From Cyanidioschyzon merolae (taxonomy: Eukaryota), in assembly GCA_000091205.1 (NCBI GenBank), contig AP006494.2: a stretch of 64,000 nt of DNA; one strand, 5' to 3'. Of this stretch, positions 5,058 to 64,000 are shown in pieces (position 1 is the first letter of the stretch; every line of letters begins with the position of its first letter). The position numbers and the translations under genes were made by a program. The notes under the pieces are model-generated. The model was not told the DNA's origin. It did no database searches and was given only the letters and a program-made list of their open reading frames with translations.

Positions 5058-5816
5058 TCATAGCGGAGGCTCGCTGGCTGCTGCTGTCGCCGATGCCGAT
5101 GTTGATGCCGATGCCTCATTCGAACCCAAGGCACAGTTGGTAGTCGCGGGCACCGACGCGCTATCCTGTCTGGCACCCGAGTTGCAGATCATCGCGTCCA
5201 GCTCCAGTAAGACGCCGTCCGCGTCATACACCTGGAACGGGCGATTGAAGGTGAAGCTGCAGCGATCTGAACCTGGTTCGTCTCCGTCGATATCGACTGC
5301 TGCATCCGGATCGGTGGCGATCAGCAGGAACGGCAGCCGAACAGCCGAATCGCCTTGTAGCGACGCGGAGCGCGGGCGCCCGCTGCTCGCCACCGCCGCA
5401 CCGCGCATATTGCGTTGGACAAGGCGCTCGAGCGCTCGTACAATTGTGCGGTATCGCTGGATCCGGCCGTCCTTGTCCCGCACACTCGAACTCAGACGGC
5501 TCAGTTCGTTCTCGAGGAGAGACTGCTCTCGTACGCTGGCGCGAGGTAGACCATGCCAGCGGACAGCGCGACGATCTTTGTGCACCACGCCGATAGCACA
5601 CAGCACATTCAGCGCATCGTAGACTCGACGGCGCACATTCTTCTCTTCACTCGCCGGATCACGCAACGCTACGCCATTGTTTCCCTGCAGCAGTTCGGCG
5701 ACCAGCTCATCCGCGACCTCATTGTAGGTGGTCTCGCCTTTCTGCTCGACTTTGTGGCAAATACGAACGGCAAAGTGACGGAGGCCTTTTTCCTCACGGG
5801 GCCGCCCGGACCTCAT
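5058..5816 (-). CDS. DP: Transcription factor DP (E2F dimerisation partner), DNA-binding winged-helix plus dimerisation region
   Basis: GLRHFAVRICHKVEQKGETTYNEVADELVAELL...KNVRRRVYDALNVLCAIGVVHKDRRAVRWHGLP aligns closely with the human TFDP1 DNA-binding domain. The listed ORF start at 6068 is GTG. The first in-frame ATG is at 5814-5816, checked as cat on the plus strand. Confidence 0.8.
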   Translation of the reverse strand: MRSGRPREEKGLRHFAVRICHKVEQKGETTYNEVADELVAELLQGNNGVALRDPASEEKNVRRRVYDALNVLCAIGVVHKDRRAVRWHGLPRASVREQSLLENELSRLSSSVRDKDGRIQRYRTIVRALERLVQRNMRGAAVASSGRPRSASLQGDSAVRLPFLLIATDPDAAVDIDGDEPGSDRCSFTFNRPFQVYDADGVLLELDAMICNSGARQDSASVPATTNCALGSNEASASTSASATAAASEPPL

Positions 5817-7142
5817 CCAAGAGCTGAACTCGGGAGCGCAGTATTCAGCGCGCCCGGAAAAAAATTGGTCGACACACAGACCACGAACGCTGCCTTGACA
5901 CCGGGAGCGTTGTGCACTCGTTTGTCGTCCCGTCACCCGCGTGATGTGCGGGTTCACGTTCGCTAGTGTCGACTCAAAGACCCGAGCTGGATACTGGATC
6001 CTGAAGTCTGGACAGCGTGTTGCGTCTGGTGCGGGGTCCTCGGTAGGTGCAACCTTGCGCGAGGTCACCGGTGACCACGTGCGCTGTCCTCGTCAGTTGC
6101 AGCAGGCCGATAGTCCTCGACTCTCCAGGTCCAGCTGGAATGGCGCAAACTACCGATGCTGGGAACTACGGAGTTCTCGTTCCACAAACTTGATGCCGAG
6201 TGTCTGCAAATTCCGGTACGTTGTCAGGCGGTACTCGAAGTCGTGCTCACTTCCGTGACGAGACTGCTGCACACAGGCGGCGTCACCAAGGTGCACGCCT
6301 GATGGAATTGTCTCGCGCGCTGCAGCACACTCACCTCAATAAACGTCTTGTTCCCCGTTCTGTGCTCAGCAGTTGATCAACGGAACGCCAGGTGTCGCCG
6401 ACCCTTCCCTTGCCCGTAGATGGAAACACCCGCTACAAGCGCCATCACAGGCGCGTGTTCGCAGATATTCCCTGATCATCGCTGAGAGCGCGCATCGGCA
6501 CGCGACGCCTCGGACTGGATTGCGCTTCCCGCGCAGTCGTCGAAAGCGGCGGCGGATGAGACGTGTGCCCGAATGGGTGCCGCGTGTGCCCGGCACCAGG
6601 GATGCGCAACGCGCGCCTGCACGGACTGGATCAGAGGCGGCTGGGGCACGGACGTGGACATCGGCCCTAACTGTACATTGTGGATCAAAAAGGTCAGCGT
6701 GCGTGCATGAGCATGGTGCGCGCTGTCCGAAAAGCGAGTCGCCCACAGGCGGATCAGAGAAGCGACAATGGCATCAAAGATCCAAACCGAACATAACTGT
6801 ATGTTGTAGGGCGAAACAGTCAGAGACCCTGATCGCTGTAGACACGACGATCTCACAGCAGCGATGGACGTCACGCGGCTGGTGCCAAGCGCCCGGACTG
6901 CCGATGCAGATGCGATCGCAGTCCGTCACGTGACAAACGCCCCGCATTCGGCCGCGCGTCGACGCTGACCCTTCTGGCATCGCTACACCTCAGAAGGGAC
7001 AGGTATTCCGCTCGAGTGCCGCTGTACGCTAGGTCCGAGTGTATTGCGAAGCGGATATCCGTTGAGCTTTAGGCGACCTGCACCACGACTCGCGTAACGA
7101 TTGCGTGACGTCCTGACCCAGTAAAGAGCAGGCGCGCTCGTC

Positions 7143-7889
7143 ATGACAGAGAAAGCGTCGAAGAGGCAGAGCATCGCCGAAGCGCTGTTCGAACGGCGCC
7201 CGAAAAACTTTGGGATTGGTCAGAGTATCCAACCAAAGCGCGATCTTTCACGTTTTGTGCGCTGGCCGCGTTATGTTCGCCTCCAGCGACAGCGGAAAAT
7301 CCTTCTTCAGAGGCTGAAGGTACCGCCGGCGATTGCCCAGTTCCAGAAAACTGCGGACAAGAACTTGACGGACTCGCTGTTCCGTCTACTAGAACGTTAC
7401 CGGCCTGAGGAGAAAGTCGCCAAGCGACAACGCTTACAACAAGCCGCGGAGCGTGGTGAGACGAAACCTGACACCCCCAAGCCTATTTTCGTGAAGCACG
7501 GCGTCAACCATGTAACCGACTTGATCGAACAGAAAAAAGCCAAGCTCGTGATCATCGCGCACGACGTCGATCCAATCGAATTGGTCATGTGGATGCCAGC
7601 ACTCTGCCGCAAACTCGACATCCCCTACGTCATCGTGAAGGGCAAGGCGCGTCTGGGCGCACTGGTGCACTTGAAAACGGCGACGTGTCTGGCCGTCACC
7701 GGTGTCCACGACAGAGACCGCGCGGAGCTCTCGAAAATCATCGAAGTGTGCAAAATGCGCTTTAATGACCGATACGAAGAGATTCGAAGGCAATGGGGTG
7801 GTGGTGTGCTCGGAATCAAAAGTACCCACAAGTTAGAGAAACGACGGCGGGCGCTAGCCATCGAGGAAGCGAAACGCGCCCAGGCGTGA
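7143..7889 (+). CDS. RPL7A: 60S ribosomal protein L7a (eL8)
   Basis: Full-length colinear match to eL8: FERRPKNFGIGQSIQPKRDLSRFVRWPRYVRLQRQR...LVIIAHDVDPIELVMWMPALCRKLDIPYVIVKGKARLG...NDRYEEIRRQWGG. ATG start, no interruption. Confidence 0.95.
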   Translation: MTEKASKRQSIAEALFERRPKNFGIGQSIQPKRDLSRFVRWPRYVRLQRQRKILLQRLKVPPAIAQFQKTADKNLTDSLFRLLERYRPEEKVAKRQRLQQAAERGETKPDTPKPIFVKHGVNHVTDLIEQKKAKLVIIAHDVDPIELVMWMPALCRKLDIPYVIVKGKARLGALVHLKTATCLAVTGVHDRDRAELSKIIEVCKMRFNDRYEEIRRQWGGGVLGIKSTHKLEKRRRALAIEEAKRAQA

Positions 7890-7893
7890 ACGC

Positions 7894-10800
7894 TTAGGAG
7901 GTCAGCGTTCCCGCGTGAACTCGATCGAAAAAGGATCCCAGATCCTCTGCCTGAATGCCGTCCGCATACAACACCAAATCCATGGTTAGTGAAGATGCTA
8001 TCGACGCTGGTGCGTGCGACTCTATGCGCATATAAACACCATCCAGTGTAAGGAGGAGGGGGCTAGGCGCATTAGCGGGACGCATGATGCCGACAGCGTA
8101 AAGCGTTTCTGTGAAAGGTTCTAAAGCCCGCAAAAGATCCATGAAAGCTGCCACATCGATTGGCATTGTTCGCTGGAGGTGGAGGCGGCGGAATAGCCTG
8201 CCTCTGTTCGCAGCCGCTGGACGGTGTGCATCGCCAGCAGGTGCAGCGTCCTGCATCGCCTGTGCGGTGAGGCGCGGCAGTACACGCGAATCGGCATCAT
8301 GAGTGGGAGCTGTTGTTGTTGTTGTTGTCGTCGTCGTCGTCGCTTCTGCTTCACGCAGCCAAGGTCGATTGCGCCTGCGTACCCAGATTGCTGCAGGCTG
8401 CAGCCGGCCGTAGGGTGCACATATCACCCTGGCGTGCGGATTCCATCCACAGACGTGTTCCAGGATTTGCTGCAAACGCTCCGCAGGTACAACGTCCGAC
8501 TTGGTAAATACGACTGTGTCCGCACTGGCGACAAGCTGCTGCTGGATATGGTCTTGCGACCGGAAACGGAGGCAATCCACCGCACACACAACAGCATCGA
8601 CGCCGTCAAGCGGCTCGTCCGTCTCTAGGGCTAAGCGGAACGGACGCGGGTGCGATTCGAGACGGCTAGCGAGCGCTGCCTCGCTGACAGCTTCCAGCCG
8701 CTGGCGTTGCAGCAGAGTGCTCGGGCCTGGTGGCTCAAGTCGCCACGCCAGCAGGTCCTCGTGGGCGTTCAGCGCTCCAACCAGCGAGGTTTTGCCCGCC
8801 CCTGGCAAGCCGCAGACTGCCAGAATACCCTCATTCGCGGGTAGTGGTTCAACATCTCCCGGAACAAGTATACGCTCGTTCTGTTCGCTGTTTGCTTCTG
8901 AACGCTTTGCTTCACCCGTGATGAGTATCCACGGCGGTGCGACTCGCGATGAAAGGCGCTCGACAAAAGAGGGCGGTTGAGCGGCTGGCGGGGTCTTTCC
9001 GCCGGCCCGTGTGCTGTCCGTGTTCGGTACTAGCGACTCGAAGGGGTCTTCAAACTCGCTCCAGGCTTCCGTAAAGACGAGCTCTTCGTCGCGTAGGAGA
9101 CATTCATCCAACACTATCTGAATCCGCATCGCATCCAGATCTTCCCCGAGAAACACGATTTCACTGCAGCGATCGCCAAAGCGCTCATCCCATTGCAGCG
9201 GTCGCATTCTATCTTGCGAGTTCGGGGCGCTTGGCCACTGTTCCAGCGGTAGGGTAACGAGAAATCTTTGCCCACGTTTCAGGGTTATATTGTTTCCGAC
9301 CTGGCTCCATTCGAGAAAACTGTCCATCCGATTTGCTAACCATAGTTTTCCGACAGAGCGCAAGACACCGTGGAAGGTGCTAATGTCACTGATCTTGTCA
9401 AATAGGCGACGCGGATGAAAAGGACGGTTCGCTCTGTAAAGAAAACTCGTCTCGGGTCGCACGGTTTCCGTGCTGAAGCCTCGCTCCCATGGTCGCGTTC
9501 CACTGTACAGCGTCGCGAGGAATTGCTCGTTGCTGAACCGCGAGTCCCAAATAGGTCGCGCGGTACCTGCTGCTGACGACACCGCAGGAGCAGCGGGGTG
9601 CGTGGCACTGCCTCCGGTCGCTGCTCCGGGGCCCTTGGGTGCCGCTGCCTTTCCCGGATCATAACCTGCATCGGGTGCGGAGGCAGCGCCCCAGGATGCG
9701 GTGGCAGCTGTCGTCTCCTGTGACGCTGACGCCGCTGACGTCTCGGGTACCGTCGCTCTGGTGGCTGGCGTTGCAGCCGCTGTTGACGTGCCTACAGATG
9801 GTCCAGCCTTTGCTGAACTTTTTCCCGTACTCTGTGCTCTGTTCTCTGGCAATGCGGAACCGTATTTCTGGGAAGTTTTCGTCAGTTCCGTCGCAGCGAA
9901 AGAAGCAAGAACCCGGCGCCAGGTCGGCATCCAGAGCATCCGCTCCGGATCAAACGGTCGCTCGAGAATGCGCTCCAGGAGTGTTTGTGGCCATTCAGTA
10001 TTCGCGTGCATGAGAATCACCTGAGCCTCGCAGTTCAAGAGTCGAAGATAACGAAGTAGGTTCTGGAAAGAGGGCGTCGGGGCTGTACGGACCTCGGGAT
10101 CAGGACTTGCGTCCTGCGACTTGCGCATCGGCCGCACGTCCGCATCTGTCTCCCGACCAGGCATTTGTTGTTGGTTGTACACGACGACAAGGTTCGCATA
10201 CTCTATTTGATCCACCAGGAGCTGCACCAAATTATCAGCCTGTGCGTTACTTGCTGATCCCCGTTCCCGCTCCATAGCGGGTGGCCGTCGTGCTGACGCT
10301 CCATCGTTGTCGCCTGCACCTACATCTCCAGCTTCCACGCGCGATGCAGTTTTCTTCTCGTGCAGCAGCGTACCTCGGGATGGACTTGAGCCGTCCCGCG
10401 AAGTCTCCACGGTATCGCTCGTCGCGAGCGCTTGGTCAGCGTCGTTGTGGCTGATTTCCAGTCCAGTCCCGCCAGTTATACCCGTCGCTGTCGTTGGGAT
10501 GCGTTCCGAAGCCGGCGACGTCTGCGCTGTATTCTCAGGGCTATACGCGACAGACGCCGTTTCTTGTTGTCGCAGCGTCGGTGCGAATACCTCCGCAGCC
10601 GCCGCTGCATCGATGACGCTCACGAGCGCAAGAAGCTGCAGCGGCCACTCAACATGCGCAAGACTGTCGGCGATGGCATATGGCTCCTCTTTTTCAGGGC
10701 TGCAGACGATGAGGTAGTCCACACCGTACGCTGCCTGGACCTGAAACAGATTCACAGGGCTGGGTGCAGCTTCCACTGTTTGATCCGCAGCGCTCTGTAC

Positions 10801-47328: not shown

Positions 47329-48264
47329 ATGGGCACTGGCGGTGGGAACTGGTCAAAAAGTCTCCGTCACTTGGCCACAGGTGAAAGCGAGCTAGCGCGA
47401 ATTTGCAGTCGAGAGGATCATTCTGCAGCAATGAGCGTTCAGGTCTACCGTTGTCTGCAGAACTCCAAAGAAGCATCGGATGCGTGGCAGCGCTTTAAGA
47501 CGGAGCTTGCCGGAGGGCCTCCTATGGACTTGGGCGCCTGGGCGCGAATCCTCCTGGCAGCAAAAAAGGTACCCACTCGCTACCGTAACTGGCGGAGGGT
47601 TCAAGAGAACCTCAGGCTGAGTTTAGAGGACTTGTATCAGTGGGAGCGTGCCAAGCAAATCGTTCACGAGCGGGTGAACACCAGCTTTCAGAGCGCAGAT
47701 AAAAGTCATCAGGAGCTGCTGCAGAAGCTGCGGCAACTGGTCGAACCCATGCTCCCAGCCGGAGCAAGGGCACCGAACCGCGACTGGCGGTATGTCGGTT
47801 TCCAGGGTGATGATCCAGGCACAGACTTTCGCGGAATGGGCATCTTCGCGCTTCATCAACTTATATACTTTGCAGAAACCCGACCCCGCACTGTCCAGCG
47901 TATCCTCAGTGAGGCAAACGAGGAACGCTGGAGTGATGTTTCGGAGCACACAACCAGCACAGGATCATCGATGCCGCAACTAAAGCGCTACTACCCGTTC
48001 GCGGTCACTGGGATTCACGTCAGTGCCTTTGTAGCTCGACTTGTGCAACACGGTGCGCTCATGACAGCGTGGATTGGTGAAAGCTCAGATACTATCCTCC
48101 GTAAGATTAATGACCTGTACTGTGACACTTTCATTTTGTTTCATGAGCTTTGGCGCAAAGGGCCTGAACGTAGCATCATGGAGTTTCAGCAGGTATTCCG
48201 CGAATGCTGTGCTCAAGTCGAGCGACAGATCCAGCTTGGCGTGTTTCTTCCGCATGCACCATAG
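47329..48264 (+). CDS. ELMO-domain-containing protein (ELMOD-like)
   Basis: NRDWRYVGFQGDDPGTDFRGMGIFALHQLIYF matches the ELMO-domain core (W..GFQG..P.TDFRG.G). ATG confirmed at 47329. Confidence 0.7.
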   Translation: MGTGGGNWSKSLRHLATGESELARICSREDHSAAMSVQVYRCLQNSKEASDAWQRFKTELAGGPPMDLGAWARILLAAKKVPTRYRNWRRVQENLRLSLEDLYQWERAKQIVHERVNTSFQSADKSHQELLQKLRQLVEPMLPAGARAPNRDWRYVGFQGDDPGTDFRGMGIFALHQLIYFAETRPRTVQRILSEANEERWSDVSEHTTSTGSSMPQLKRYYPFAVTGIHVSAFVARLVQHGALMTAWIGESSDTILRKINDLYCDTFILFHELWRKGPERSIMEFQQVFRECCAQVERQIQLGVFLPHAP

Positions 48265-49179: not shown

Positions 49180-49806
49180 GTAGTCAGCAGTTGAAGGATG
49201 TAGATGGCAGCATTGAAGTCTCGATTTCACTGTTTCCTGTTATTGTCGATGGTTTCCTCGTAAAAACGGTCGTTGAAAAATATACATCGAATGCAACTTT
49301 CATCTTCTTGATAGACAGACTCAGTGCACACTGCGCAGCGGTGACACCTGACTGTTTTGCGGTGTTCATGGCTGTCCAGGACGCCAAATCCTCCGAGTGC
49401 CGCGTTGAAGTCTCTGACTGTTTGCTTCATCGATGGGTGCATATGCCGTGAGGGAACCATAAGCCCAGCCTCAAGGCTCTCCTCCGTTTTCGCCCCAGGA
49501 GCGGTACTCAGCGATCACGAGCTTGCTCTGGGTGATGCCGTCTGCGAGTACGCGGTACACTGCAAGCGCAAGCGCATGCTGTTCCATTCGAACGAGGGTT
49601 TGTCGAGCAAGAAGTTTTCTATGATGCATGAAGTATCGGAAGGAAGACCCGGACTGGAGAACAGGTCGGGAAATTTCGATCCGTCTACGCGTCCTTGTGC
49701 AAAGCGGTGACGCACACTGCAGCGGAGATAATCGCAGCGATGACTCCGGTCCGAGTCCGAGACGCTTTACCACAGAAACAGAAGAGACGGAATTCTTTTG
49801 GAGCAT
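49180..49806 (-). pseudogene. C-terminal half of a TnpB/Fanzor-type RuvC nuclease, inactivated by an in-frame TGA and a frameshift. Contains a RuvC-II-like block, a zinc ribbon and the RuvC-III motif.
   Basis: Minus-strand translation: ...ITQSKLVIAEYRSW (RuvC-II-like, Glu retained), a frameshift, then ...FNAALGGFGVLDSHEHRKTVRCHRCAVCTESVYQEDESCIRCIFFNDRFYEETIDNNRKQ*NRDFNAAIYILQLL. The C-x2-C-x15-C-x2-C ribbon and the NRDFNAAI motif are separated by a TGA. It shares DNA-level homology with the 25.9-kb fragment, for example catcgaatgcaa...actgcgcagcggtgacac. Confidence 0.5.
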
Positions 49807-50831
49807 ATCCCGTGGGAGACATCATAGGGCTGTCGAATACGGGTCAGTTGGTACTCATATAGAGGGAATGATTTGACTTTCGGACGGAGTCGATTATTTG
49901 ACAAGTTCAGTGAACTTTTGGCATGAGCTCGTGATGAAATCGTGTAAGTCGGATTCTGCGTGGTCAGCGCTGTTCCGCGAATTGCTCCGCTCACGACTTG
50001 TTTCGAAACAGCGAGCTCGATATGCTAAAGAATGCGCGATTTCAAGATCTATACGTGAGGTGTGGGGATGCACACAGGCTCGCACCTGAAAATGGATCAA
50101 GATATCGGTTACGCTGCGGACACATGAGCGAAGGCATCGCAAATGATCGTGATTTCGATGACGTAACAAATTCAAGCGGCAAAGTGTCGAACCTGCGACT
50201 CCGAAAAGACGTGCCAGCGCCTGGAAACTACGTACGAGCCCGTCATCGTCTCGTGCTGGACCTCGGGTGCCGGCGCTGGGTATCCACTGAACATTCTGGA
50301 AAATGTCTAGACAGGAACAGAGCGAGTGGTACAGGGTTCCCTTGTCATGTTTGACGGGTGTGGCGCGATACGAATAATGATGCCTATTGTGCGTTCTAGA
50401 TTTTCCAATAGATTCTTTTTTGCCCTTGCAGGGATCGCAAACCCACCTGGCCCCAGGCGATCACTCGACGAGGTATGCTTGCCAGCGCCCAAGTTCCGAA
50501 CAGGCACTCCGGACTCCAAGAGAAATCCAAAACGACTCGTCAAAATAGCAAGAAACGCTGGTGAGTTACGTGGGCCTCGGCATATCCTTTGCGCAGCAGC
50601 CCAGGTGTAGACATCTGCGTACCAGAAGAACCATGCGGTTGAGGGATCCAGTGCTCTCCATCCGCCGAGGTCGCTTTCCGCTGTTCCATTCCGATGAATT
50701 GCATCATACGAGAGTGCACAAACTGCATTCGAGATGCGAGGCCTCGATTCAGCATTAGACGCAGTGATGCAGACTCGACAGAAACTCTCTGCTTCGTGAC
50801 CCAGCCCGTTTAAAATTTGAGGCATCCCCTG

Positions 50832-52490: not shown

Positions 52491-52501
52491 AATCGCCGAC
52501 A

Positions 52502-55000
52502 CCGAACACTTTCCAAAAGTCGAACGACGCCAGCGGTGTACAGTAGTGGCGAGAAGCCCGCTCTGGACAAGAAGTCTTCAGCTGAGGTGCAGACGCCTCC
52601 CCGTCTTTACGGACCGGCCACCCACCACTGATTCCAATGTTTTCTCATATAGTTCCATTTTGAGTGATTGTCCAATAAAGTTCACTCTTGTCTACTCTGG
52701 AGGTCTCGTCTCCAGCACCGCACATTTCCTTATATTGATAGCGGCATTAAAGTCTCTGTTCACAAACTCCATATGTTTCGTGCCATCACTGGTTGTACTC
52801 ACTAGTGCAAGTAGCCATCGAACTTTCGCTCTCCCTTCCATTTGCTCTTCCGTCAGCGCTCCGTACTTTTGTATATCTTCAGGACTCGTCTGGCACTTTT
52901 CCATCTCCAGTCTCTCTGAAGTGTACAACCCAGTTCATGGTGTGTATAGGACGTTCGAAACTCATCTGTCGGTATCGTAACAAAACGCCTTGCGCACGCC
53001 TTGTACGTTCTTGTCGTTGGAGCTGGCGTAGTCCCTTTTTAGGTCATCCATCGCCCTGGTCCGTACGCTACTACGAGCCTCTGACCCTCATCCCTATTCG
53101 CGGCGCTCAGCTGATTGAAAAAATTGGCGAATGCACGCTGCTTCCCACAACAAAGATTCATTCGCAAATGAGCCCACCGAGGCTTTGTATACTCCTCCCA
53201 CGGCGCATTCCAATGGGCAACACGAACTTCCATGAATTTCCGAAAAGCTTCAAAGTCGGCTCCTCGGCTGGTCACCTCGCTCAAAGCCCCAAGGTGATCC
53301 TTCATTCCTGAATTCCAAGACTCGATTTTCTTCCTCGCATTCATTATACAGGACTCTCGATAGTGTCTCGCTCCCGAGAGCCTCAACAGACGCATGTCTT
53401 TCTGACGCAAGTTACCATCAGTACCATTTTCCGCACGCTTCGGTGCTGCGATGGTAATGATATTCGTATTCCCAGGGTCCGCGCCAACGACAAAGTCGTT
53501 ATCCTGCACTTTCTGCATCGCAGGATCCGCCTCCTTCTTTTCTTCCTTTTTCACCGCGTCAAAGACAAGGTCGTCATCCTGCACTTTCTGTGTGGCAGGA
53601 TCCGCCACCTTGTTTTCTTCATGCTTCGCCGAGGGCAATATCGAAGACGGACCAGGACAATCTGTCTTCAACCGCCAGTAGTGTACACACTTGGATACCC
53701 CATCGGTTTTGATCAACCCAGTGGATATCTTTTGTTTGCTCACTTTGAGACGTTTGAAATCGAAGACGTTCTTCCAGTACGTCTCCCGCTTGTCACCGGT
53801 GAACTCTGTCTTCCATACATCAAACTCCGGACAGATCTCCTTCAAGATGCCGTAAAGGACGCCGGAATCGATGCTCACAAAATGTGACCGGATGTTGCAG
53901 ATTGGAACCACGTTGAAGCGCTTCCCCATTAGGACAGCCTTCCGACTCTCCCATTCATCACTTTTTCCTCACTCGGCTATATCTCCGCTTTGCATTCGAG
54001 TTCTCGGTCCAGGAACACGAAATAGCGCAGAATGAGGCGGTAGTGTCTTTCCTTACCTTTTTCAACTCTGATACCTTGTCTATTGGATTCGCCAGCCCCA
54101 AGACTGCAAGATGCTCTTTAATAGCCGCACGGATGACGGAATCCTCATTTGTGCTCCTGCGTGACGCCTTCTTGTCGACAAAGTCGATCTCATCTTCATG
54201 CTTGCGATCGTTCGTGATGCCATTGAAAATCGCCCATATCCCTTTGCCAGAGATACCAGGGTGAGTGCAAACACGGGGCGTATCATGAAACGTTCACGGT
54301 TCATAGTCGAATGGTTCTTCGGATTTGTGAGGCATTTCATGGCCCCATAGAAGCAAATACCCCAGTCACCCATGTATCGAGTACCGTCAAAGCGGAATTC
54401 GCGTAATTCCAGTGGAGGGCGTTCATGTGCTCATTTCTCCTTGACTTCTCCCCTGCGCCCAGCACCAGGTGGCGGATAAAGCTCCTGTTGAAAAACTCGT
54501 CCGCGACCTCGACTGTTTTGATGTCCGTCACGTCGCGATACATCTCTCTCGCTGAATGCATCAATCCTGACGACGACTTGACAATAATCTTGGAGTACGA
54601 GCCAACACGTTTTTGATAGCGTCTCGCAACTTTTCCCCGTAGGGATCCTTGATATGTCCAAGAAGGAAGGTTTTCACCACCATCTCGTTGTACAGGCGTC
54701 TTTCTTGCCGCCTTCGACGTAGGGCCTCCCCCTTTCGGTTCTTCTTCTCTTCCTTTTCTTCTGGACTCGGCACTGTTTTTTGTTTTTTTCTAGCAGCCGG
54801 CGACAGTGGGCCTCCAGGATCGTCGACTTGTTTTTTCATAACTTTTCTTTTATTAGTTTTTTCGAAAAAGAACGCTCTTTGAACGCTTCTGTTATATACT
54901 GCGAACAAACACATGAATACACTTGTTTGAGGTTTAAAAACACAAATGAACTGAGTAACTGTACTTTGCTACGACCCGAACGGAAATCCAACCTTTATAG
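52502..55000 (-). mobile_element. Copy 1 of an element of about 2.4 kb encoding a TnpB/Fanzor-like RuvC nuclease. The left boundary is approximate. The right, 3' end abuts the helicase start codon.
   Basis: It is homologous along its whole length to the copy at 60681-63100, at roughly 65-90% identity by eye. The 3' 190 bp after the nuclease stop, and the RuvC-III coding block, are the most conserved parts. Confidence 0.6.
52692..54839 (-). pseudogene. Fanzor/TnpB-like (OrfB_IS605 superfamily) RNA-guided-nuclease homologue. N-terminal basic NLS-like tract, Ruv[12 protein letters not shown], a degenerate RuvC-II/zinc-ribbon region, and RuvC-III NRDFNAAINI. Disrupted by at least 2 frameshifts and 1 in-frame stop.
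   Basis: N-terminus MKKQVDDPGGPLSPAARKKQKTVPSPEEKEEKKNRKGEALRRRRQERR, with the ATG at 54837-54839. Segment [19 protein letters not shown] matches the TnpB RuvC-I pattern VGIDLGITN. RTYKACARRFVTIPTDEFRTSYTH matches the YKA...V.P..TSQ.C linker, with the Cys residues lost. The C-terminus reads KHMEFVNRDFNAAINIRKCAV*. The consecutive ORF segments 54561-54839, 54337-54564, 54080-54373, 53039-53929 and 52692-52928 lie in shifting frames. Confidence 0.65.
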
Positions 55001-55170
55001 CTAAACAGCACGCTATTCATCAGGATCACGTTTCGCTTCAACAAAGGCACCGAGCGCGCCGTGACCCATGCCTGGCAGACCTCCCCGGTTCGCTCACCGA
55101 GCACGACGCGCTTTTGAGGCCTGGAGTGTGCTGGTGGCTACTGCCTGGCACTCCCGCTTTTGCACATTGG

Positions 55171-56547
55171 ATGAATGATGCGGAAGGACGCGTATATGGT
55201 GCCGATGCAACGCGGTTACCGTTCGTCAAGTCGCGGAGGACGTGCGACGTACTCGGCGGCTGCAGCCAAACGAGGCTACCAGTTACTTTCTCCTTTCCAT
55301 CAACAGGATGTCTACATTCGGGTACGTACTCTGGGGGAAAGACGATTACGCGCTCAAAATGTGGTATAAAGTTTCTAGAGTGCCCTAGTGAACTCCATTT
55401 GGGAGCCTACCACGTGGGGATGTTTGTTCGCGGGCAACGCTCTTGGAAAGTGCACGCTCCGCAACAGCAACGGGAGCAGAGCGTTATAGCTGCTTTCGTG
55501 CAGGGTGCCAGAACGTCGGCTGAGCATGCTTCCTCTGCAGAAAGCACATGTTTGCGTGTCCGACAAGGAAGACGGCTCGCGCACAGCGTCGAGAGGAGCA
55601 GCGATAGCGTCGACAGCAGGCTAGTCGTAGACCAGTCGCCGCTGTGGCGTGCAAGTGAGCTCCAGAGCGGCTCTAAGCCGCCGCCGCGACGGCCCGGCAG
55701 CTGCTGGACCTGCCTGGCTGAGCCTCCACCAGAGCCGGACTTCGGAGGTTGGGGGCATTTATCGCGCAGTCTAGCCCAAGTGCGCGTTTATGTCAGCGGA
55801 CTAGAGTCACTACGCGCTCTCGTGAGCAGAGCCGACCCATCAGGTCTCCCGCTGAGAGCACGACGCAATGCTCTGAGGCGCTCTCAATACCCTGGTCGAC
55901 CGTATCGTCTGCACGAACATCCGAAGGTTACCGACTGGCTCGCTGCAATCACGATTCTGTCCTTTCTTCTGCAGCTGTGGGCCGGTCCCGCATATGTCAT
56001 GGCTGGCGCCAAAGTGAATGCTGCGATTCGCACCGGAGAATGGTATCGCCTCTTTACACCACTCTTTCTGCACGGAAACACCTTGCACCTCATCGTGAAC
56101 CTGTCTTCACTCAAAAGTCTCGGACCGCAAATCGAGGCAACTTATGGGCACAGACGTTATGCAGCGCTGTACTTGCTCAGCGGGCTCACAGGCAACTTGT
56201 TCTCGTTTTTCTTCAACACAGCACCATCTGTTGGCGCAAGCAGTGCCATATTCGGCTTAATAGGTGCGATGGCAGCCTTCTATGTATCGAATACGGACTG
56301 GTTTGGACGAGAGCACAGCCATCGCGTCCTGCGCAACATTGCGTGGGTGACATTGTTGAACCTTGGACAGGGCCTTGCTCCAGCGAGTCGTATCGACAAT
56401 TTTGGTCACCTGGGGGGCCTTCTCGGCGGAGCAGTCTTTGGCGTGCTCTTTGGACCTCGACTCTATCTGGATCCGAAGGGACGGCTTGTCGATATTCCCC
56501 TCGCGCAAGGATGGTTGCAGCGATTGCGCCGCAGGCGTTATCGATAA
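55171..56547 (+). CDS. Rhomboid-family intramembrane serine protease. The catalytic core is in the C-terminal ~210 aa; the N-terminal extension and the start are uncertain.
   Basis: WYRLFTPLFLHGNTLHLIVNLSSL, GxSx motif GASSAIFGLIGAM, and catalytic-His region FGHLGGLLGG. The listed start 55114 is TTG; the first ATG is 55171. Confidence 0.7.
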   Translation: MNDAEGRVYGADATRLPFVKSRRTCDVLGGCSQTRLPVTFSFPSTGCLHSGTYSGGKTITRSKCGIKFLECPSELHLGAYHVGMFVRGQRSWKVHAPQQQREQSVIAAFVQGARTSAEHASSAESTCLRVRQGRRLAHSVERSSDSVDSRLVVDQSPLWRASELQSGSKPPPRRPGSCWTCLAEPPPEPDFGGWGHLSRSLAQVRVYVSGLESLRALVSRADPSGLPLRARRNALRRSQYPGRPYRLHEHPKVTDWLAAITILSFLLQLWAGPAYVMAGAKVNAAIRTGEWYRLFTPLFLHGNTLHLIVNLSSLKSLGPQIEATYGHRRYAALYLLSGLTGNLFSFFFNTAPSVGASSAIFGLIGAMAAFYVSNTDWFGREHSHRVLRNIAWVTLLNLGQGLAPASRIDNFGHLGGLLGGAVFGVLFGPRLYLDPKGRLVDIPLAQGWLQRLRRRRYR

Positions 56548-58864
56548 AGAGCTTAAAAGGGCCACCGCCAAGAATTCTGCTGAGAGCTGTGTCCATCACA
56601 GTATACGAGAGCGCGACAGCGGATTCCGGTTTGATGTATCGCCAATTAGGTCCATTGAGACTGAATTTCTGGTAGTCAGATGCTGGTGCCAGTGGTGTCA
56701 GAAGGAGCAAACACACGCTGCAGCGTCGCAGATGATCTCTCTGTGTACGATGCTGGGGCCGTGCGGTAGCGCACCTCGGCGAAGAGGCGGTCTTCATTGC
56801 CAGGAGAAGTTGGCAAGCCTGGACCAAAACATGCCGCTAGATTCCAGAGCTCTTTGCTGATGAGCAAGGATCTCTGCATGGTGGGCAAGGATTCTGAGCT
56901 CCAGCGCGCTTGTGCACCACGGAATGGGGTAGGCTGCCATCCATGCGGACGCACGAGGCCGTGCACATTACTCAATGGTATCGTGTGGAGTGCATAGGTC
57001 GATCGTCGTTCTGTAGAATCGTAGATACCGGCTTATCGCTGATTGGCATGGAGGAAATGCGTACGCTACCTGGTATGTGAAGCCCGAACGAAGGCTAGGG
57101 CGACGCCGTGTACATAGGGAACCAGGCAACTGGATTAAACCGCACCTCATTACCGGTACTACGTAGTTCGCGCGCTCGAGGTTCACCCGCTCTTCCCGTT
57201 CGGAAGTCGCGATCCGGGCTCTCTTAAACGAGAGCTTCTTTATGGAATGTTCGTGTTACCCTAGAAACGTACAGAAAACACTGAAACGCTATCGCCGGCA
57301 TTCCAGATTTTGACTTTTCACAGGATACGCTCTGTAAGCGAAAGCAGGAAGCATCTCCGAGCCAGAAAAGTTTTGCATGAAAATGGATTATCGAACGGGT
57401 TGCTATGTGCGTACTTTGCTATTTTCCGATCTTTCTTGGATGCGTAGCCTTGGCACTCGAAGTGCTGCAACAAGTACTTTAGCGGCCAGCCGTGCATTTA
57501 GGATTCTTGCTCGTCGATTCGGAGTTGCTCCATTAGCTCGATACTGCTCGAATTCGTTCCCTCACAAAATCCAGATGATTTGCGACACCTTCGAAATATG
57601 GCTCGGAAAATCACCGGTATCATTCTTTTATTCAGAAGTGCATTCCTCCATGCCTCTCCTTTTCGCATCTGCAACATACTGCTGTTATACGTCCTTCAAT
57701 TTTTCAATCTTTCTCTTCAAAGGAGATTTCTGGGCGCAGCAATACGCGCCGGTGGATGGACGACGAATAGTGCCTCATGATGGACCTTGCCGATTTCCCT
57801 ACGAGCTCACACTGAAGATCATTGAAACTGTCATGTCAAAAAAAGATTTCGGTTGAAAGACCAATCCTGCTCTTTTTAATGATATCGATTAAAACGGCAC
57901 TCATCAGTGGCTGCAAGTTGCCTCTCGCAGAGTTCTCCCCGAGAGACTCCAGTATCTTCAGGCTGTATGGGAAAGAGTCGTCGGTCCTGCGGTGAGTTAA
58001 TGTAGCTATCGCATACAATGGAGCGATCACCACTTTGGCACACCAAGGGAGCGTACAAAATCGAAACATATCGACTTGTTCACAAGCACGTGTTCTCCTT
58101 CCGGTACTTGTTTCATCGCGGCCAATATCGCGTCCCATGAATTCTCTGTGTAATGGGACCGCGAGCTTTTTTTGTGCATCGGACAGCGTACAAGCGAATG
58201 GGATCATTCAAAAGAAGACCACGATCGTAGGATGCAGCACCGGCCGCGGAAACAAAATTCCTTTTGGAGCACCGATTTCTGTACCTGTCAATAGTATGTA
58301 CTGAGCGATAAAGTGAGCATTCACGCGCGAAAGGGCGTCGCTTGGAAGAGCAGTAGGAGAAGGAAGTTTTGGAAGATGTATAAAAAACCTGACTACAGTC
58401 AAGAGCTACCGCTACGAACGGCACATAGAGGCTGTACACAACAAGAATAAAAGTTGTATTCAGTGCCTTGATTTAAACCTCGGTATGTGTGTGAAATAGC
58501 GGGGAAAAAGCCGGGTGCCGCCAAATCGAGACTTGAGCATTGCCATCAACATCCACTGACCGCTTCCAACAGAGTCACAGTGATGCGCGTGGCCGGCATA
58601 CGTAAAGCCAGGAATAAGAGCGAGGAAAGAGAACAAGCCAAATAACACACCCGCAATGGCTGGCTTCGATGACAAGTGCGAAGGCAGTCAAAAATGAGCG
58701 TGTGAGCTCTAGTTGAAAAATTTGCTCCAATTTATGTTGGCATGAGTATAGTTAGCATCCCATACGGTCCAGTCATTCAGTGCGAACGTACGTTTGCATC
58801 CCAGAGACCGTTTTCACGATAGCGTGCCCAGAGAACATCGAGTCCCATGTATGCATCCACCGCG

Positions 58865-60508
58865 CTAGGCTACAGCGAAGCCTTCGTACCCACCAGCTGC
58901 AACTTCTGCACATTTCTGGCGATACTTTCCGACACCACCTGTGTAGGAGAGCATTCGACGAGGCTTGCCTTCAACGTTGGTGCCGGTGTACCACGAGTTC
59001 GTCTTCGAGAAGAGCGTGCTGTTTGCCAGGTCATCGTGGTGCCGCACCCAGGCCTCCTGGAATGAGGCTGTCGGCTCAATAACGTTATGCCCCTTCGCCT
59101 GTATATACTGGATACAGTCAGTGATCCACTCGACCTGCTGCTGTAAACACGTTGTCATGTTGCACAAAGCTGCCGAAGGCGAGAGCGGCGCTCCTGTTAG
59201 GAACATGTTCGGATAGCCGTGCACCATCAAACCAAGCGCACTGCAGATATCCCGACTCCATTCCTCCTTGAGGCTGCGGCCGTCTCGTCCGCGAATATCG
59301 ATGCGTATAAAGGCTCCGGAGCTCGCATCGAAACCAGTTGCGAGAATGATGATATCGAGTTCATGTACGGTTCCATCAGCGAGGCGGATCCCTTCAGGAA
59401 CAACCTCCACAATCGGATTGTTTCGCACACAGATCGCTTCGACGTTGTCGCGGTGATAGACCTCGAGGTAACCAGATTCCAGAGGGACTCGGCGCGACCC
59501 GAACCCGTAATCTGTTGGCACCAAAATCTCGATAAGTTTTGGGTCCTTAAGTCTTGCACGCATCTTTTCGCGTACAAACTCCGACACCTCTTCACTGATC
59601 TGCGGGTCCGTGAAAATCTCGTCGAAACCACCGAGCCACGCACGTAGTGAACCGTCGTTGTAGGTCTCCTCGAGCACCGCAAGTCGCTGCTCGGGTGTCA
59701 GATCCGCCCAGCGATGCTTGATCACGTATTCGAATCCACTGGCTGTCGTTGGCAAGAGTTCGCGCAGCTCCTCGAAGCGTTTCTTGTACGAATTGACGTC
59801 ATCAGGATTGTACTTGGGATTCTTCATCGGCACAACGTACTGCGGCGTTCTCACAAAAACCTTCAGCTGACCGACCTTGTCTGCAATAGTCTGGATAACT
59901 TGGATTCCAGTCGCACCGACACCGACAACGCCAACGCGTTTGCCATTGAGGTCAATTGGCTCACGGGGCCAACGAGCGGTGTGGAAGATGCGTCCACGGA
60001 ATCGTTCCTGACCAGGGAATCGGTTCTCTAACGGGGCCGATAGCATACCACAACAGCCAATTAAGAACCGTGCATCGTAGGTTTGTCCTCGATCCGTCTT
60101 GATGATCCATCGCCCACGCTTTTCATCGTATTCGGCCGCAGTGACTGTCGTGCAGAAGCGCAAGTAGGGTCGCAGCCCTAGGCGGTCGGTAACGTAGTGC
60201 AGCCAACGCTCAATTTCGGGCTGGCCCGGGAAACGCTCACTCCAGGACCAGTCTTTGTACAATTTCTCATCAAACAAGTATTGATATACATAGCATTCAG
60301 AATCAAACTTGGCGCCGGGGTAGCAGTTCCAGTACCAGGTACCCCCAACGTCTTCCGCAGTGTCCACAGCAAGCGCATTCAATCCAGCCGACCGAAGCTT
60401 GTGTAGCTGGTACAGGCCTGCGACACCAGCGCCAATAATCAGTGCGTCGAGTTCAACAACGCTTTTGTTTTGAACGTGGTTGGTGAATTGGTTGAGCTCC
60501 GCTCCCAT
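58865..60508 (-). CDS. Type I Baeyer-Villiger monooxygenase (FAD/NADPH-dependent, cyclohexanone/phenylacetone monooxygenase-like)
   Basis: N-terminal Rossmann motif IIGAGVAGL, BVMO fingerprint FRGRIFHTARWP (FxGxxxHxxxWP), and a second dinucleotide motif GKRVGVVGVGATG. ATG confirmed at 60506-60508. Confidence 0.85.
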   Translation of the reverse strand: MGAELNQFTNHVQNKSVVELDALIIGAGVAGLYQLHKLRSAGLNALAVDTAEDVGGTWYWNCYPGAKFDSECYVYQYLFDEKLYKDWSWSERFPGQPEIERWLHYVTDRLGLRPYLRFCTTVTAAEYDEKRGRWIIKTDRGQTYDARFLIGCCGMLSAPLENRFPGQERFRGRIFHTARWPREPIDLNGKRVGVVGVGATGIQVIQTIADKVGQLKVFVRTPQYVVPMKNPKYNPDDVNSYKKRFEELRELLPTTASGFEYVIKHRWADLTPEQRLAVLEETYNDGSLRAWLGGFDEIFTDPQISEEVSEFVREKMRARLKDPKLIEILVPTDYGFGSRRVPLESGYLEVYHRDNVEAICVRNNPIVEVVPEGIRLADGTVHELDIIILATGFDASSGAFIRIDIRGRDGRSLKEEWSRDICSALGLMVHGYPNMFLTGAPLSPSAALCNMTTCLQQQVEWITDCIQYIQAKGHNVIEPTASFQEAWVRHHDDLANSTLFSKTNSWYTGTNVEGKPRRMLSYTGGVGKYRQKCAEVAAGGYEGFAVA

Positions 60509-60680
60509 AACCGGTCAAAATCAACACGCTTGTCCTTGAATTCACGAGCAAGTTGCAAACTTGAATTCACAATAACAGCTGCACGCAACTTTAAAGACAA
60601 AACAGAAACGCTAAGCACCAAGGAGATTATCCTGAACGCTCCAAAAAATATCGTGAGCTCGAGTCCCACGGTGCGATTTT

Positions 60681-63100
60681 CCGAACACCTTAAAAGTTAA
60701 ACGAGGCTGCAGTCGGCAGTACAGAAGTGGCTAAAGCCACCGAAACAAATTGTTCGCTGGCGAGGTGCAGACACCTCCCGGTCTTTTTTGGCCAGCGACC
60801 CACTCTAGCTTCCAATTTCGTTCCATATATGCTAGCCTTGACTCATTATGGGAAAAAAATCCTTCTTGTCCACTCTGCATTTCTGTTCTCCAGCACCGCA
60901 CATCTCCTTATATTGATAGCGGCGTAAAATCTCTGTTCACAAACTCCATCCGTTTCTTGTCATCATTCATTGAACAAACTAATGCAAGTAGGCCTCGGAC
61001 TTTCGCCCTCTTTTCCATTTGCTCTTCCGTCAGCGGTCCATACTTTGCTATATCTTCCGGAATCCGCAGGCAGTGTCCTATCTCGACCCGCAGGAGTCGA
61101 GATGGAAAACTCGTGGGGTGTATGGACCTTCGAGACACACGTAAAGGTATCGTCACGAAACGCCGTGCACACTCATTGTACGTTCTTGTCGTTGGGGCTG
61201 GCGTAGTCCCTTTTTTTTTCGGAACCCATCTCCATGCTCCGTATGCTACTACGGGCCTCTGACAGTCGTTCTTCTTCTAGGTGCTGAACTCTTCGAGAAA
61301 ATTCGTGAACGCCCACTGCCTACCACAGTACAGCCTCACACGCAAACGAGCCCACCGGGGATTTGGATACATTTCCACAGTTCCACCTAATGAGCAACGC
61401 GAACATACCATAAATTTCCGAATAGCTTCAAACCCGGCTCTGCGGCTCGTCACCTCGATCGTAGCTTTCCGATGCTATTTCATCCTGCACTCCATGTCTC
61501 GAATTCATCATCGTATTCAAGATTCCCGCTTCTCCGTAGTATCTCGCTTTCGAGAACGTAAAAAGATGCATGCCTTTCTGACGTAAGTTGCCGTCAGTGT
61601 CAACATCCCCATGCTTGGGTACTACGATGGTTATGATATTCGTGTTCCAGGCATTAAGGCCGACGAAAAAGTCGTTTTCGTGGATATTATAAGTCCCATG
61701 GCCCGCCTTCTCCTTCTCGTGCTTCGACAAGGGGATACCGAAAACGGGATAGGACGACCTGCCTGCAAACGCGGATGGTGTACACATATGTCGCCATCAT
61801 TGTAACCGATTGTCCAAGTGAGAACCATGTTTTGGCCAGTTTGAGACGCTTAAAATCGAAGATATTCTTCCATTAGGTGTCCCGGTCGTCGTCGGTGACA
61901 TCTTTGTTGCTTACATCGAGCTCTGGCGAGATCTCTTTCATGAAGGCGTTAAGGACTCTGGAGTCGATACTCACAAAATATGACTTGAACTCGCATCACC
62001 AAACGGCAATAAAGCGCATCAAGAGAAGCAATTCAACGTCGTTTCTCCGACGGTCATTTTTTCCTCAGCTCCATTTCGGCCATGCCTTCGAGTTCTCTGC
62101 GCAAAATCATGAAGTAGTGCAGAATGGGGTGATAAAATCTCTCTTCGTTTTCTCTGACATCTGAGAATTTTTCACTTGGGTTGACGAGCCCCAAGCGTTA
62201 GCGATGCTTCTGAATAGTCGCGCGGAATACTGAAGCCTCATCATATCTGCAGCGTGATTTCGTCTTTTCTACAAATCTGATCTGCTGTTCATGCTGGCGA
62301 CATTTCTAGTCCGCATAGATGATTGCCGAAATCCCTTCAGGAAACAGGCCCGGGTACAGCGCAAAGACGGCCCGTATTACACAACATCCGAGGTATGCGT
62401 TCTTATGGTTCCTCGGATTCGGGAGGCACCTCATGGCCCTGTATTCGTAAATATTAGCGTCATCCCTGTGTCCAGCACCATTGGTGCGGTATTTGACGTA
62501 ATTATTGAGAAAGGCATGCATTCGGTCATTTCTCCTCGATGTTTCCCATCGCAAACAATCAGGTGGTAAATGAAAGTCGTTTTGAAAAATTCATCAAGGA
62601 AACATCATTTTTGCCATGTGCGTTACGCCGCGATGCAGCTCGTTCTCAAAAGGCGTCGGTCCTAAAGAAAAGTAGCAAACATACGTGGCGCACGAATCGA
62701 CACTGTTTCTGTTAGCGCCACGCAACATTCAGTCGTACGGACCATTGATATGTTGGAAAAGAGGGGATTCCGCCACCATCCCGTCGTACACACGCCATTC
62801 GTGCAGCCATCGACGAAAGGCCTCCCCGATTAGCTTGTACTTCTTTTCTTGATCGTCTTCGCTAGGCACTGTTTGTTGTTTTCTTCCAACAATTGGCAGC
62901 ACCGTTAATCCTCAACCCTTTATTTCCACATGAAAATGTCTACTTTTTTTTTGGGGAAACCACATTGAACGCCTCTGCGTTGAGCGGCGAACATCAGTTG
63001 AATACCCCTACTTGAGGTTTGAATCACGACAGAAGCCAAAACTATACATTGCGACGATTTGATTGCAAGTATAGCTGGCCCCGATAGAGCAATAGCTCCA
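60681..63100 (-). mobile_element. Copy 2 of the Fanzor/TnpB-like element, more degenerate than copy 1. The RuvC-I Asp is replaced (FVGLNAWNTNIITIV) and there is a 1-nt deletion in RuvC-III (MEFVNRDFTPLSI*).
   Basis: ORF fragments at 60908-61156, 61428-61787 and 62306-62554 are homologous to copy-1 segments. AMRCLPNPRNHKNAYLG matches copy-1 AMKCLTNPKNHSTMN. The N-terminal region and the 3' non-coding region are also conserved with copy 1. It lies about 170 bp upstream of the BVMO ATG, in the same orientation. Confidence 0.55.
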
Positions 63101-64000
63101 GAAGAAGTCATTATGGCGTTTCCCTTCACCGCCAAGATGCACGTCGAGTTACGTGACAGCTAGCTTCTGCAATGCGTTACCGGTGCGCACGATACAAAAG
63201 AAAACAAAATAACAAAAAAATATCGGATAGCAAGTTTTTCCCCATCTACTGTGAACGTTAAAATGAGGAAGCTTTTGCGTATGGTCCGACATTTATATTT
63301 TAGGAGCGAGGCATGCAAGTAGCGAGAATCCTACGGCTTAATCTCCGTAGGACGCTGCAGTTGCGGATGATGTGACGCACATGAGCACCTCGTCGGAAAC
63401 GCATTTGATTCTGTGACTATGACAGCGTATTCCGCGTCTGGGCGTCACCTGGGCCGTGGTGGGCTCCTAGTATACCGCTCCCCGCTACCGCAGGCGGAAG
63501 GTCAGCCGTTCAGAATTTGACGATCCCAGAAATATAATAGCTCCGATTCCGTATCGCATAAACAAAGCGCCTTCCGACACGCTCAAATGTAGACAACACC
63601 AGGCCTAACTCACAGTGCATCCGCAACAGAGGTAGAGACACAACCGCGGGTGCACACGGCAGGAAGCGGAATACAGCAGGGATTAGAGAACAACGTGAAC
63701 AGCGGAAAATAAGCAAAAGCGATGAAACGAACCGAACTTGTCAAGCATGATGGACGCTTTCTTGAAAGACAATACAGATCAGGGAATCAAGAATACATTG
63801 TCAGCGACAAGTCCAGCCGAACAAAAAAAAGCAAGAAGGGATATGCCTAACGGCTCTGGTATGCTGCATGTCACTATGACAGGTGGGTATGGGCCCAGAT
63901 CGTTCCGCCGCAAAGGATTCCCTAATGACAATGAAAAGCGCGACGTCGCTATAAAAGATGCAAATCCACTGAGATCATCCCACGCAAAGGAGATGGGGGG

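Follow-up and report, generated by a model that had tools for sequence, protein, structure and literature searches.

Results and Discussion

Two copies of a Fanzor1-type element

We analysed a stretch of 64,000 nucleotides from Cyanidioschyzon merolae (assembly GCA_000091205.1, contig AP006494.2), called the window here, which carries two copies of a Fanzor-type mobile element, copy A and copy B. Fanzors were recognised as RNA-guided nucleases in 2023. The window is nuclear DNA of the unicellular red alga C. merolae 10D, because two proteins flanking the copies match 10D proteins, encoded on a contig of 859,119 bp, exactly. These are a DDX56/DBP9-like helicase of 552 amino acids on the minus strand (ATG at 52490; BAM80900.1) and a monooxygenase of 547 amino acids (58865–60508, minus strand; BAM80902.1). 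Copy A occupies approximately 52494–55103 on the minus strand, its 5′ boundary being taken from a multi-copy alignment and its 3′ boundary from the end of a terminal hairpin. A preliminary description, made from the sequence alone, had placed this copy correctly, but its limits (52502–55000) fall short at both ends. Copy B is the same element at approximately 60681–63042, also on the minus strand; it is far more decayed, and its 5′ end is diverged or truncated. Environmental contigs of the C. merolae type carry copy B at the orthologous position with approximately 99 % identity, and environmental hot-spring contigs match window positions 55865–63505 at 98.7–99.0 %. The two copies had been described as diverged, co-oriented and homologous over the whole length of the second one. 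This was borne out by blastn, which aligned 53548–52502 with 61724–60681 (72.7 % identity over 1064 nt) and 54790–53619 with 62886–61717 (66.3 % over 1185 nt). No third copy was found within the window by tblastn. Copy A is approximately 83 % identical to the best-preserved relative and copy B approximately 70 %; one metagenome locus, L001, aligns with its positions 5700–8408 to window positions 55079–52516 at 79–84 % identity.

Six-frame translation of copy A recovered all the quoted peptide blocks on the minus strand, where the preliminary description had put them. The start codon (ATG at 54839, MKKQ) and the strongly basic N-terminal stretch KKQKTVPSPEEKEEKKNRKGEALRRRRQERR together span 54696–54839. 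The stretch itself, KKQKTV...RRRRQERR, lies downstream of the ATG at 54696–54788 and contains the clusters KKQK, KKNRK and RRRRQERR. N-termini of Fanzors function as nuclear localisation signals (PMC10530073), and on the strength of this published role and of the basic clusters we regard the stretch as a candidate signal of this kind. A 75-bp tandem repeat (1.9 copies, 53479–53620; Tandem Repeats Finder and self-blast) encodes an acidic/basic linker immediately upstream of RuvC-I. The RuvC-I motif follows at 53447–53497, with its catalytic aspartate kept, and this aspartate lines up with the DPG motif in the Fanzor1 proteins of known structure. The canonical RuvC-II position lies in LVVAYGPGRW (53048–53077), which has a glycine instead of the usual glutamate. 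The block beginning with YKA and ending in TS had been read as a linker. It is present, but it contains TDEFRTS (52949–52969), which aligns to the DEFRTS/DEYKTS of the proteins from Parasitella parasitica (PpFz) and Spizellomyces punctatus (SpuFz) and carries the alternative catalytic glutamate of Fanzors. The RuvC-III motif MEFVNRDFNAAINIRKC (52722–52772), again with its catalytic aspartate, lies at the extreme C-terminus as described and is followed by ETRPPE and a stop codon at approximately 52692. The codons for all catalytic motifs are thus kept in copy A. Beyond the stop codon, a family-conserved non-coding tail runs to an anchor sequence CGCCACTACTGTACAC (tail 52536–52694, anchor 52536–52551), and the element ends in an imperfect hairpin at 52494–52535.

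Protein homology and the active site

Searches with single sequences were not significant. With the stitched, conceptually repaired translation of copy A and its close relatives, the best Pfam match was to 11 residues of Cas12f1-like_TNB (PF07282; E=0.19–0.23), there was no match to PDB sequences, and a narrow profile of seven sequences also found nothing in the PDB. The stitched translation has 41 close relatives, all from metagenomes of the Joint Genome Institute (JGI). The best of them, P0001 (752 amino acids), shows 66 % identity at 97 % coverage. It is labelled DUF8286 in precomputed Pfam data, where the label is marked as weak; close members carry the same label. There are 293 coding stretches of the family in hot-spring metagenomes, and a profile search of 1.84 billion representatives gave 2365 clusters at E≤1e−3. 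The family alignment and profile used below comprise 83 full-length members drawn from the representatives of these clusters. Once this profile was used, the result was positive: it matched exactly three proteins among the PDB sequences, all of them Fanzor1, namely PpFz (9cf0; E=7.2e−22), SpuFz (8gkh; E=2.4e−15) and the Guillardia theta protein GtFz (9cer; E=3.7e−10).

The fold agrees with this assignment. An AlphaFold2 model of P0001 built with the 83-member alignment had a predicted local distance difference test (pLDDT) score of 82.4 and a predicted template modelling (pTM) score of 0.80. The model is disordered only in the repeat linker (residues 374–470, pLDDT below 50), which is equivalent to window positions 53479–53620. 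The 75-bp repeat that encodes this linker varies in copy number among members, with approximately one copy in copy B, two in copy A and five in P0001, and copy A differs from the best-preserved relative by an in-frame 150 nt within the repeat. When the model was compared with the PDB using Foldseek, the top seven matches were all Fanzor structures (E=1.3e−16 to 1.2e−13, target TM-score up to 0.71), followed by Cas12i, TnpB and other Cas12 proteins at E of approximately 1e−2. The profile search and the structure prediction, checks of the kinds proposed in the preliminary description, thus bear out a protein of the TnpB/Fanzor family.

The catalytic columns of the alignment are nearly free of variation. 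The RuvC-I aspartate (D484) is invariant in all 83 members, as are the glycine at the canonical RuvC-II position (G623) and the alternative glutamate of DEFRTS (E656); the RD of RuvC-III (R724–D725) is present in 82 of the 83. A rearranged RuvC catalytic site has been described for Fanzors (PMC10530073), and the match of these columns to it identifies a Fanzor-type active site. One could still argue, from the single-sequence searches alone, that the likeness to RuvC is due to chance and that the motifs come from some unrelated protein family. The profile that returns only Fanzor1 proteins and the fold search whose best matches are all Fanzors (E for the two between 1e−10 and 1e−22), together with the invariant catalytic columns, refute this idea, and we give it practically no credence.

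The solved Fanzor1 structures (SpuFz1, 8GKH and 9CEU–9CEZ; PpFz, 9CF0–3; GtFz, 9CER–T) share with the C. merolae family the aspartate of GxDPG, the glutamate of DE[FY][RK]TS and the aspartate of RD, as well as a helical N-terminal half and a eukaryotic host. The identity in the structural alignment is only 13–16 %, and the variable, disordered tandem-repeat linker before RuvC-I is a feature of the C. merolae family as compared with the solved proteins. The latter have been characterised biochemically, whereas the C. merolae family is known here from sequences and a model. The solved proteins also keep a CxxC...C...C zinc ribbon between the alternative glutamate and RuvC-III, where members of the present clade have zero to three cysteines. 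None of the 83 members has four cysteines between the alternative glutamate and the RD, and the clade consensus, DEFRTSK...VRGLLWCxST...KFVNRDLNAAxNI, includes at most one conserved cysteine. The preliminary description was therefore right that the zinc-ribbon cysteines are missing from the two copies, but not in counting this as a loss in these copies. Judging from the alignment, the missing ribbon is a trait of the whole clade, ancestral to it, and not a product of pseudogene decay. A zinc-ribbon-less Fanzor1 clade of this size (2365 representative clusters) should be informative on the purpose for which the TNB/zinc ribbon is needed.

The likeness to bacterial TnpB of the IS200/IS605 group extends beyond the protein. 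The RuvC fold of ISDra2 TnpB (8H1J) is matched with a Foldseek probability of 1.00 over 272 columns (E=0.011), and in both cases a mobile element has its gene on the 3′ side, a conserved non-coding tail, hairpins near the ends and no terminal inverted repeats (TIRs). The C. merolae protein, in contrast, is approximately twice as long, has a rearranged catalytic glutamate and no zinc ribbon, lacks a TnpA partner and belongs to a eukaryotic nuclear host. We considered membership among the prokaryotic TnpB proteins (IS200/IS605, IS607) and rejected it on the glycine at the canonical glutamate position, the missing zinc ribbon, the eukaryotic host and the E values of approximately 1e−2 for TnpB structures. 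Bacterial TnpB is a distant relative that would work in the same way and not a member of the same family.

Decay of the two copies

Each copy was aligned to the best-preserved relative, and lesions were called in the reading frame of the latter. Copy A has six frameshifts (at approximately 54614, 54403, 54262, 54062, 53965 and 52911) and two premature stops (at approximately 53977 and 53039). Copy B has approximately 16–20 frameshifting indels and 8–12 stops. The alignment thus agrees with the description of both copies as pseudogenes, and the two specific lesions reported for copy B are also there. Its RuvC-I remnant FFVGLNAWNTNIITIV (61623–61670, minus strand) reads FFVGLNAWNTN, with the aspartate changed to asparagine. 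In its RuvC-III remnant (60888–60949, minus strand), a 1-nt deletion at approximately 60929 separates NRDF from AAINI, so that MEFVNRDF and AAINIRRCAVLE lie in different frames. The other motifs of copy B are disrupted in frame, and remnants of the 3′ anchor (GCCACTTCTGTACTGCC) and of the terminal hairpin are found at 60688–60731 on the minus strand. Neither window copy is able to encode the protein.

That one or both copies are still functional genes, the frame changes being introns or sequencing errors, is very improbable. Copy A does retain all three catalytic motifs and an open stretch of 296 amino acids (53039–53929). Against this stand its six separate frame changes of 1–2 nt and two stops, and the more than 16 frame changes and more than eight stops of copy B. 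The lesions of copy B recur in independent environmental assemblies at approximately 99 % identity, and since they are shared in this way they are not sequencing errors. Introns are very few in C. merolae (PMC11050394). The 10D annotation has no gene at either copy: the helicase (BAM80900) and the monooxygenase (BAM80902) are one accession apart, the one between them presumably being that of a rhomboid gene. Proteins from NCBI or UniRef are also absent among the family relatives that we found. The conservation profile across many copies tells the same story of decay, with a majority-base fraction of approximately 0.86–0.93 that is even along the whole element, as expected under neutral decay from a master copy.

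Ends of the element

The anatomy of the ends was drawn from 80 metagenome loci, in which the element ends are common to copies with unrelated flanks and enclose a core of 2.6–2.8 kb. The shared 5′ boundary lies approximately 65 nt upstream of TGAAGGGAAACG, and the start of the core has small hairpins such as CGCTCGGTGAGCG. Immediately 5′ of the left end there is a weak AT(C)G-like motif, the one feature that bears on a possible target-adjacent motif (TAM). At the other end, the approximately 160 nt that follow the stop codon are conserved in the family up to the anchor CGCCACTACTGTACAC and can be aligned in all copies. The anchor is followed by the imperfect hairpin of 40–50 nt and then by a short TG-rich tail. 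Two registers of the hairpin are seen, CGTCGTTCGA/TCGAACGGCG and AACGTTTTTC/GAAAGACGTT, which differ at many positions, yet both pair. Each forms a stem of approximately 10 bp with a G-U-rich outer stem, and together they are seen in approximately 35 loci (e.g. L008, L014, L077). No TIRs were found in copy A, and copies with unique flanks show no evident target-site duplications.

No other 62-nt window of the element is as stable as the hairpin, which also has the strongest sense bias, with a folding energy of −19.6 kcal mol−1 in the sense and −13.6 kcal mol−1 in the antisense orientation against a background asymmetry of approximately 2. This bias towards folding of the sense strand points to G-U pairs, that is, to RNA or a single strand. 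We considered that the hairpin might be a host target or a free-standing repeat and rejected this, as it is found only beside the anchor: 35 of 38 occurrences are near an element anchor, and the other three adjoin diverged anchors. The guide RNA of published Fanzors occupies the position that corresponds to the tail and hairpin of this element, and the conserved tail of approximately 200 nt and the hairpin are, by this analogy, a candidate omega-RNA. The 3′ tail is not more conserved than the coding part, so that conservation provides no evidence for a functional RNA, and an Rfam scan of the element gave no match. The defined anchor and hairpin could guide the reconstruction of the omega-RNA. 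A separate observation concerns the anchor itself. A near reverse complement of it, GTGTACACTACTGGCG (pairing at 14 of 16 positions), is found inside the coding region at approximately 53660–53675, some 1.2 kb upstream of the anchor, and is in the same place in many copies (chance expectation approximately 0.02 per element).

Several other repeats adjoin the core. The 5′ boundary is bordered in different copies by at least three repeat families unrelated to one another, and one class starts with the palindrome GGACACGTGTCC. One of the families is the A-rich 3′ end of an element like a long interspersed nuclear element (LINE), with an open reading frame (ORF) encoding a zinc knuckle (HCPCCG..ET..LQCPRW). 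LINE-like and other repeats lie approximately 100–1000 nt upstream of the core in L024, L025, L038 and L066. We therefore rejected the possibility that the sequence upstream of the core is a part of the element encoding a transposase, as the neighbours are at least three unrelated repeats, including the LINE-like one. A shared transposon gene downstream of the element was likewise rejected; the ORFs there show no mutual similarity and are ordinary host genes.

The LINE-like neighbour raises the question of whether a LINE partner spread the family by retrotransposition, as with short interspersed nuclear elements (SINEs) or HAL1, and DNA transposition played no part. The constant 3′ end with its sense-biased stem-loop and TG-rich tail, the variable 5′ ends, the lack of TIRs in copy A and the class of copies that sits directly after the A-rich end of the LINE-like zinc-knuckle repeat would all fit such a route. 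It nevertheless appears quite unlikely. The LINE-like repeat and the Fanzor element have no common 3′ tail (mean alignment z=0.3), on which ground a partner sharing this tail was rejected; neither target-site duplications nor a poly-A are seen, and later deletions or adjacent repeats can account for the differences at the 5′ end.

Identity and likely function of the family

We interpret both loci as dead, independently decayed insertions of one old Fanzor1 mobile family in the C. merolae nuclear genome, almost certainly the family CMe-1A, and we put the probability of this interpretation at roughly 0.94. It bears out the earlier suggestion of a eukaryotic transposon family of the RNA-guided-nuclease type, here as Fanzor1, by homology, fold, eukaryotic host and multi-copy nature. 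Rhodophytes are among the known Fanzor hosts (Jiang et al. 2023). A single Fanzor1 family, CMe-1A, has been reported from C. merolae (Bao & Jurka 2013, Mob DNA 4:12; PMC3627910). It has approximately 150 copies that are approximately 80 % identical to a consensus of approximately 3 kb, no TIRs, target-site duplications that could not be determined, and a 5′ part shared with the repeat TE-N2_CMe; most copies are degenerate, and some are intact (PMC3627910). The present family agrees with this description in its host species, in which CMe-1A is the only Fanzor1 family reported, in the lack of TIRs and of evident target-site duplications, and in the degenerate state of most copies. Its degree of decay (83 % identity of copy A to the best relative, majority-base fraction approximately 0.9) compares with the approximately 80 % to the consensus, and its core of 2.6–2.8 kb, with other repeats abutting the 5′ end, compares with the approximately 3 kb. 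One difference is that the paper has some intact copies, whereas none of the 80 loci here is clearly intact; neither the terminal hairpin nor the placement of copies with respect to host start codons is described in the paper.

The best-preserved member (L001 5800–8259, L006 2423–4756) has one open ORF of approximately 780–820 codons with all catalytic motifs. No unambiguously intact copy was found among the 80 loci, and in the populations sampled the family appears to be extinct or close to extinction.

Several observations weigh against this interpretation. The identity with CMe-1A, almost certain as we hold it to be, rests on matching descriptions and not on a comparison of sequences. The C4 zinc ribbon of the 2013 Fanzor motif is absent. 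The ORF of L001/L006 does not share the frame of the MKKQ start, and no in-frame ATG precedes its basic N-terminus. The tail of copy A does not fold better than shuffled sequences (z=−1.09), and RNAalifold applied to 30 tails gave 10 weak pairs and one compensatory pair. As for the zinc ribbon, homology and fold are the basis of the assignment to Fanzor1, the class in which the C. merolae element is also placed by the 2013 paper itself.

From this evidence, the intact element would have encoded a single protein of approximately 700–750 amino acids. Its predicted layout is a basic N-terminus (a probable nuclear localisation signal), a helical half for guide and target recognition, the disordered repeat linker and a RuvC domain without a zinc ribbon. 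The active site would comprise the aspartate in GxDPG, a glycine at the canonical glutamate position, the alternative glutamate in DEFRTS and the aspartate in NRD. By homology with SpuFz, PpFz and GtFz, the protein would enter the nucleus through its basic N-terminus. There it would bind an RNA derived from the 3′ end of the element, made up of the conserved tail of approximately 200 nt, the terminal hairpin and a guide contributed by the flank. By analogy with characterised Fanzors, such a complex would be an RNA-guided nuclease that cuts matching double-stranded DNA with its RuvC site, and this cutting may have helped the element to persist.

A Fanzor1 family in C. merolae, with its high copy number and its decay, is already known and has been in the literature since 2013, and the identification itself adds little to that description. 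The one item that deserves follow-up, in a genome that is compact and genetically tractable, is the association of the element with host start codons.

Position relative to host start codons

The 3′ hairpin of copy A ends (52494) 3 nt before the ATG of the helicase gene (52490). Its 5′ end (55103) is 68 nt from the ATG of a divergent rhomboid gene (55171). The copy therefore fills essentially the whole divergent intergenic region (52491–55170), typical spacers in the window being 0.5–3.6 kb, and at least the promoter and leader of the helicase gene would have to lie inside the relic. Copy B ends approximately 170 nt upstream of the ATG of the co-oriented monooxygenase gene (60508).

A similar arrangement is seen in the metagenomes. 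Counts were made over non-redundant metagenome loci, taking the nearest ORF of at least 150 amino acids on the downstream side. This ORF is co-oriented with the element in 25 of 35 loci, or in 27 of 37 when the two window copies are included (p=0.008). In 13 of 37 loci (L008, L016, L022, L024, L028, L042, L049, L053, L056, L059, L064, L066 and L067), the distance from the element end to the first ATG of this ORF is within 100 nt, and in six of these it is within 7 nt. With the window copies the count is 14 of 39, as against 3.6 % expected from random intergenic positions in the window (p=4e−11). The downstream ORFs are mutually unrelated host genes, among them FtsZ, glycerol-3-phosphate dehydrogenase, eIF5B, ProA, a NOP2-like methyltransferase and an anion exchanger. 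No bias of this kind is seen on the 5′ side, with orientations of 12 versus 10 and 2 of 29 starts within 100 nt. We found no report of a pattern linking the 3′ end of the element to start codons in the literature that we searched.

The pattern could reflect an insertion preference for 5′ leaders, a survival restricted to those insertions that carry in a promoter, or a logic of homing, and the start-codon bias makes both the choice of site by Fanzor elements and their retention there as promoters testable. It is possible, though we hold it only tentatively and with the odds against it, that the relics have undergone exaptation, so that the promoter and 5′ leader of the co-oriented downstream gene are now supplied by copy A and, elsewhere, by many of its sister copies. 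This would be compatible with dead Fanzor1 insertions and may hold in addition, the sequence being kept for regulation and not for the nuclease. The filled intergenic region next to the helicase gene, the excess of co-oriented ORFs and close starts, the ordinary and unrelated nature of the downstream genes and the unbiased 5′ side all speak for such a role. The 3′ part of the element, however, is not more conserved than the rest, a stable hairpin beside an ATG would be expected to hinder scanning ribosomes, and a preference in insertion site could yield the same pattern.

Host genes behind the 3′ ends of the element are often essential, including the helicase, FtsZ, eIF5B and NOP2. A more speculative and, in our estimate, unlikely explanation is that the placement of the family is not random and that it targets or homes to the 5′ edge of coding sequences, with a guide that covers the first codons of the host gene. 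Error-prone repair of the cut, empty site would then be lethal, which would leave copying of the element as the one outcome to survive. If true, this would be the same principle as in homing endonucleases and engineered gene drives. In a milder version, the relics may now serve as promoters and leaders.

One further repeat was noted on the other side of the helicase gene, in the spacer between this gene and an ORF ending at 48264. It is an old dispersed repeat at 49470–49933 with 64–67 % identity to flanking sequences in L001, L049, L058 and L071, and with a 46-nt match of 91 % identity in L015.

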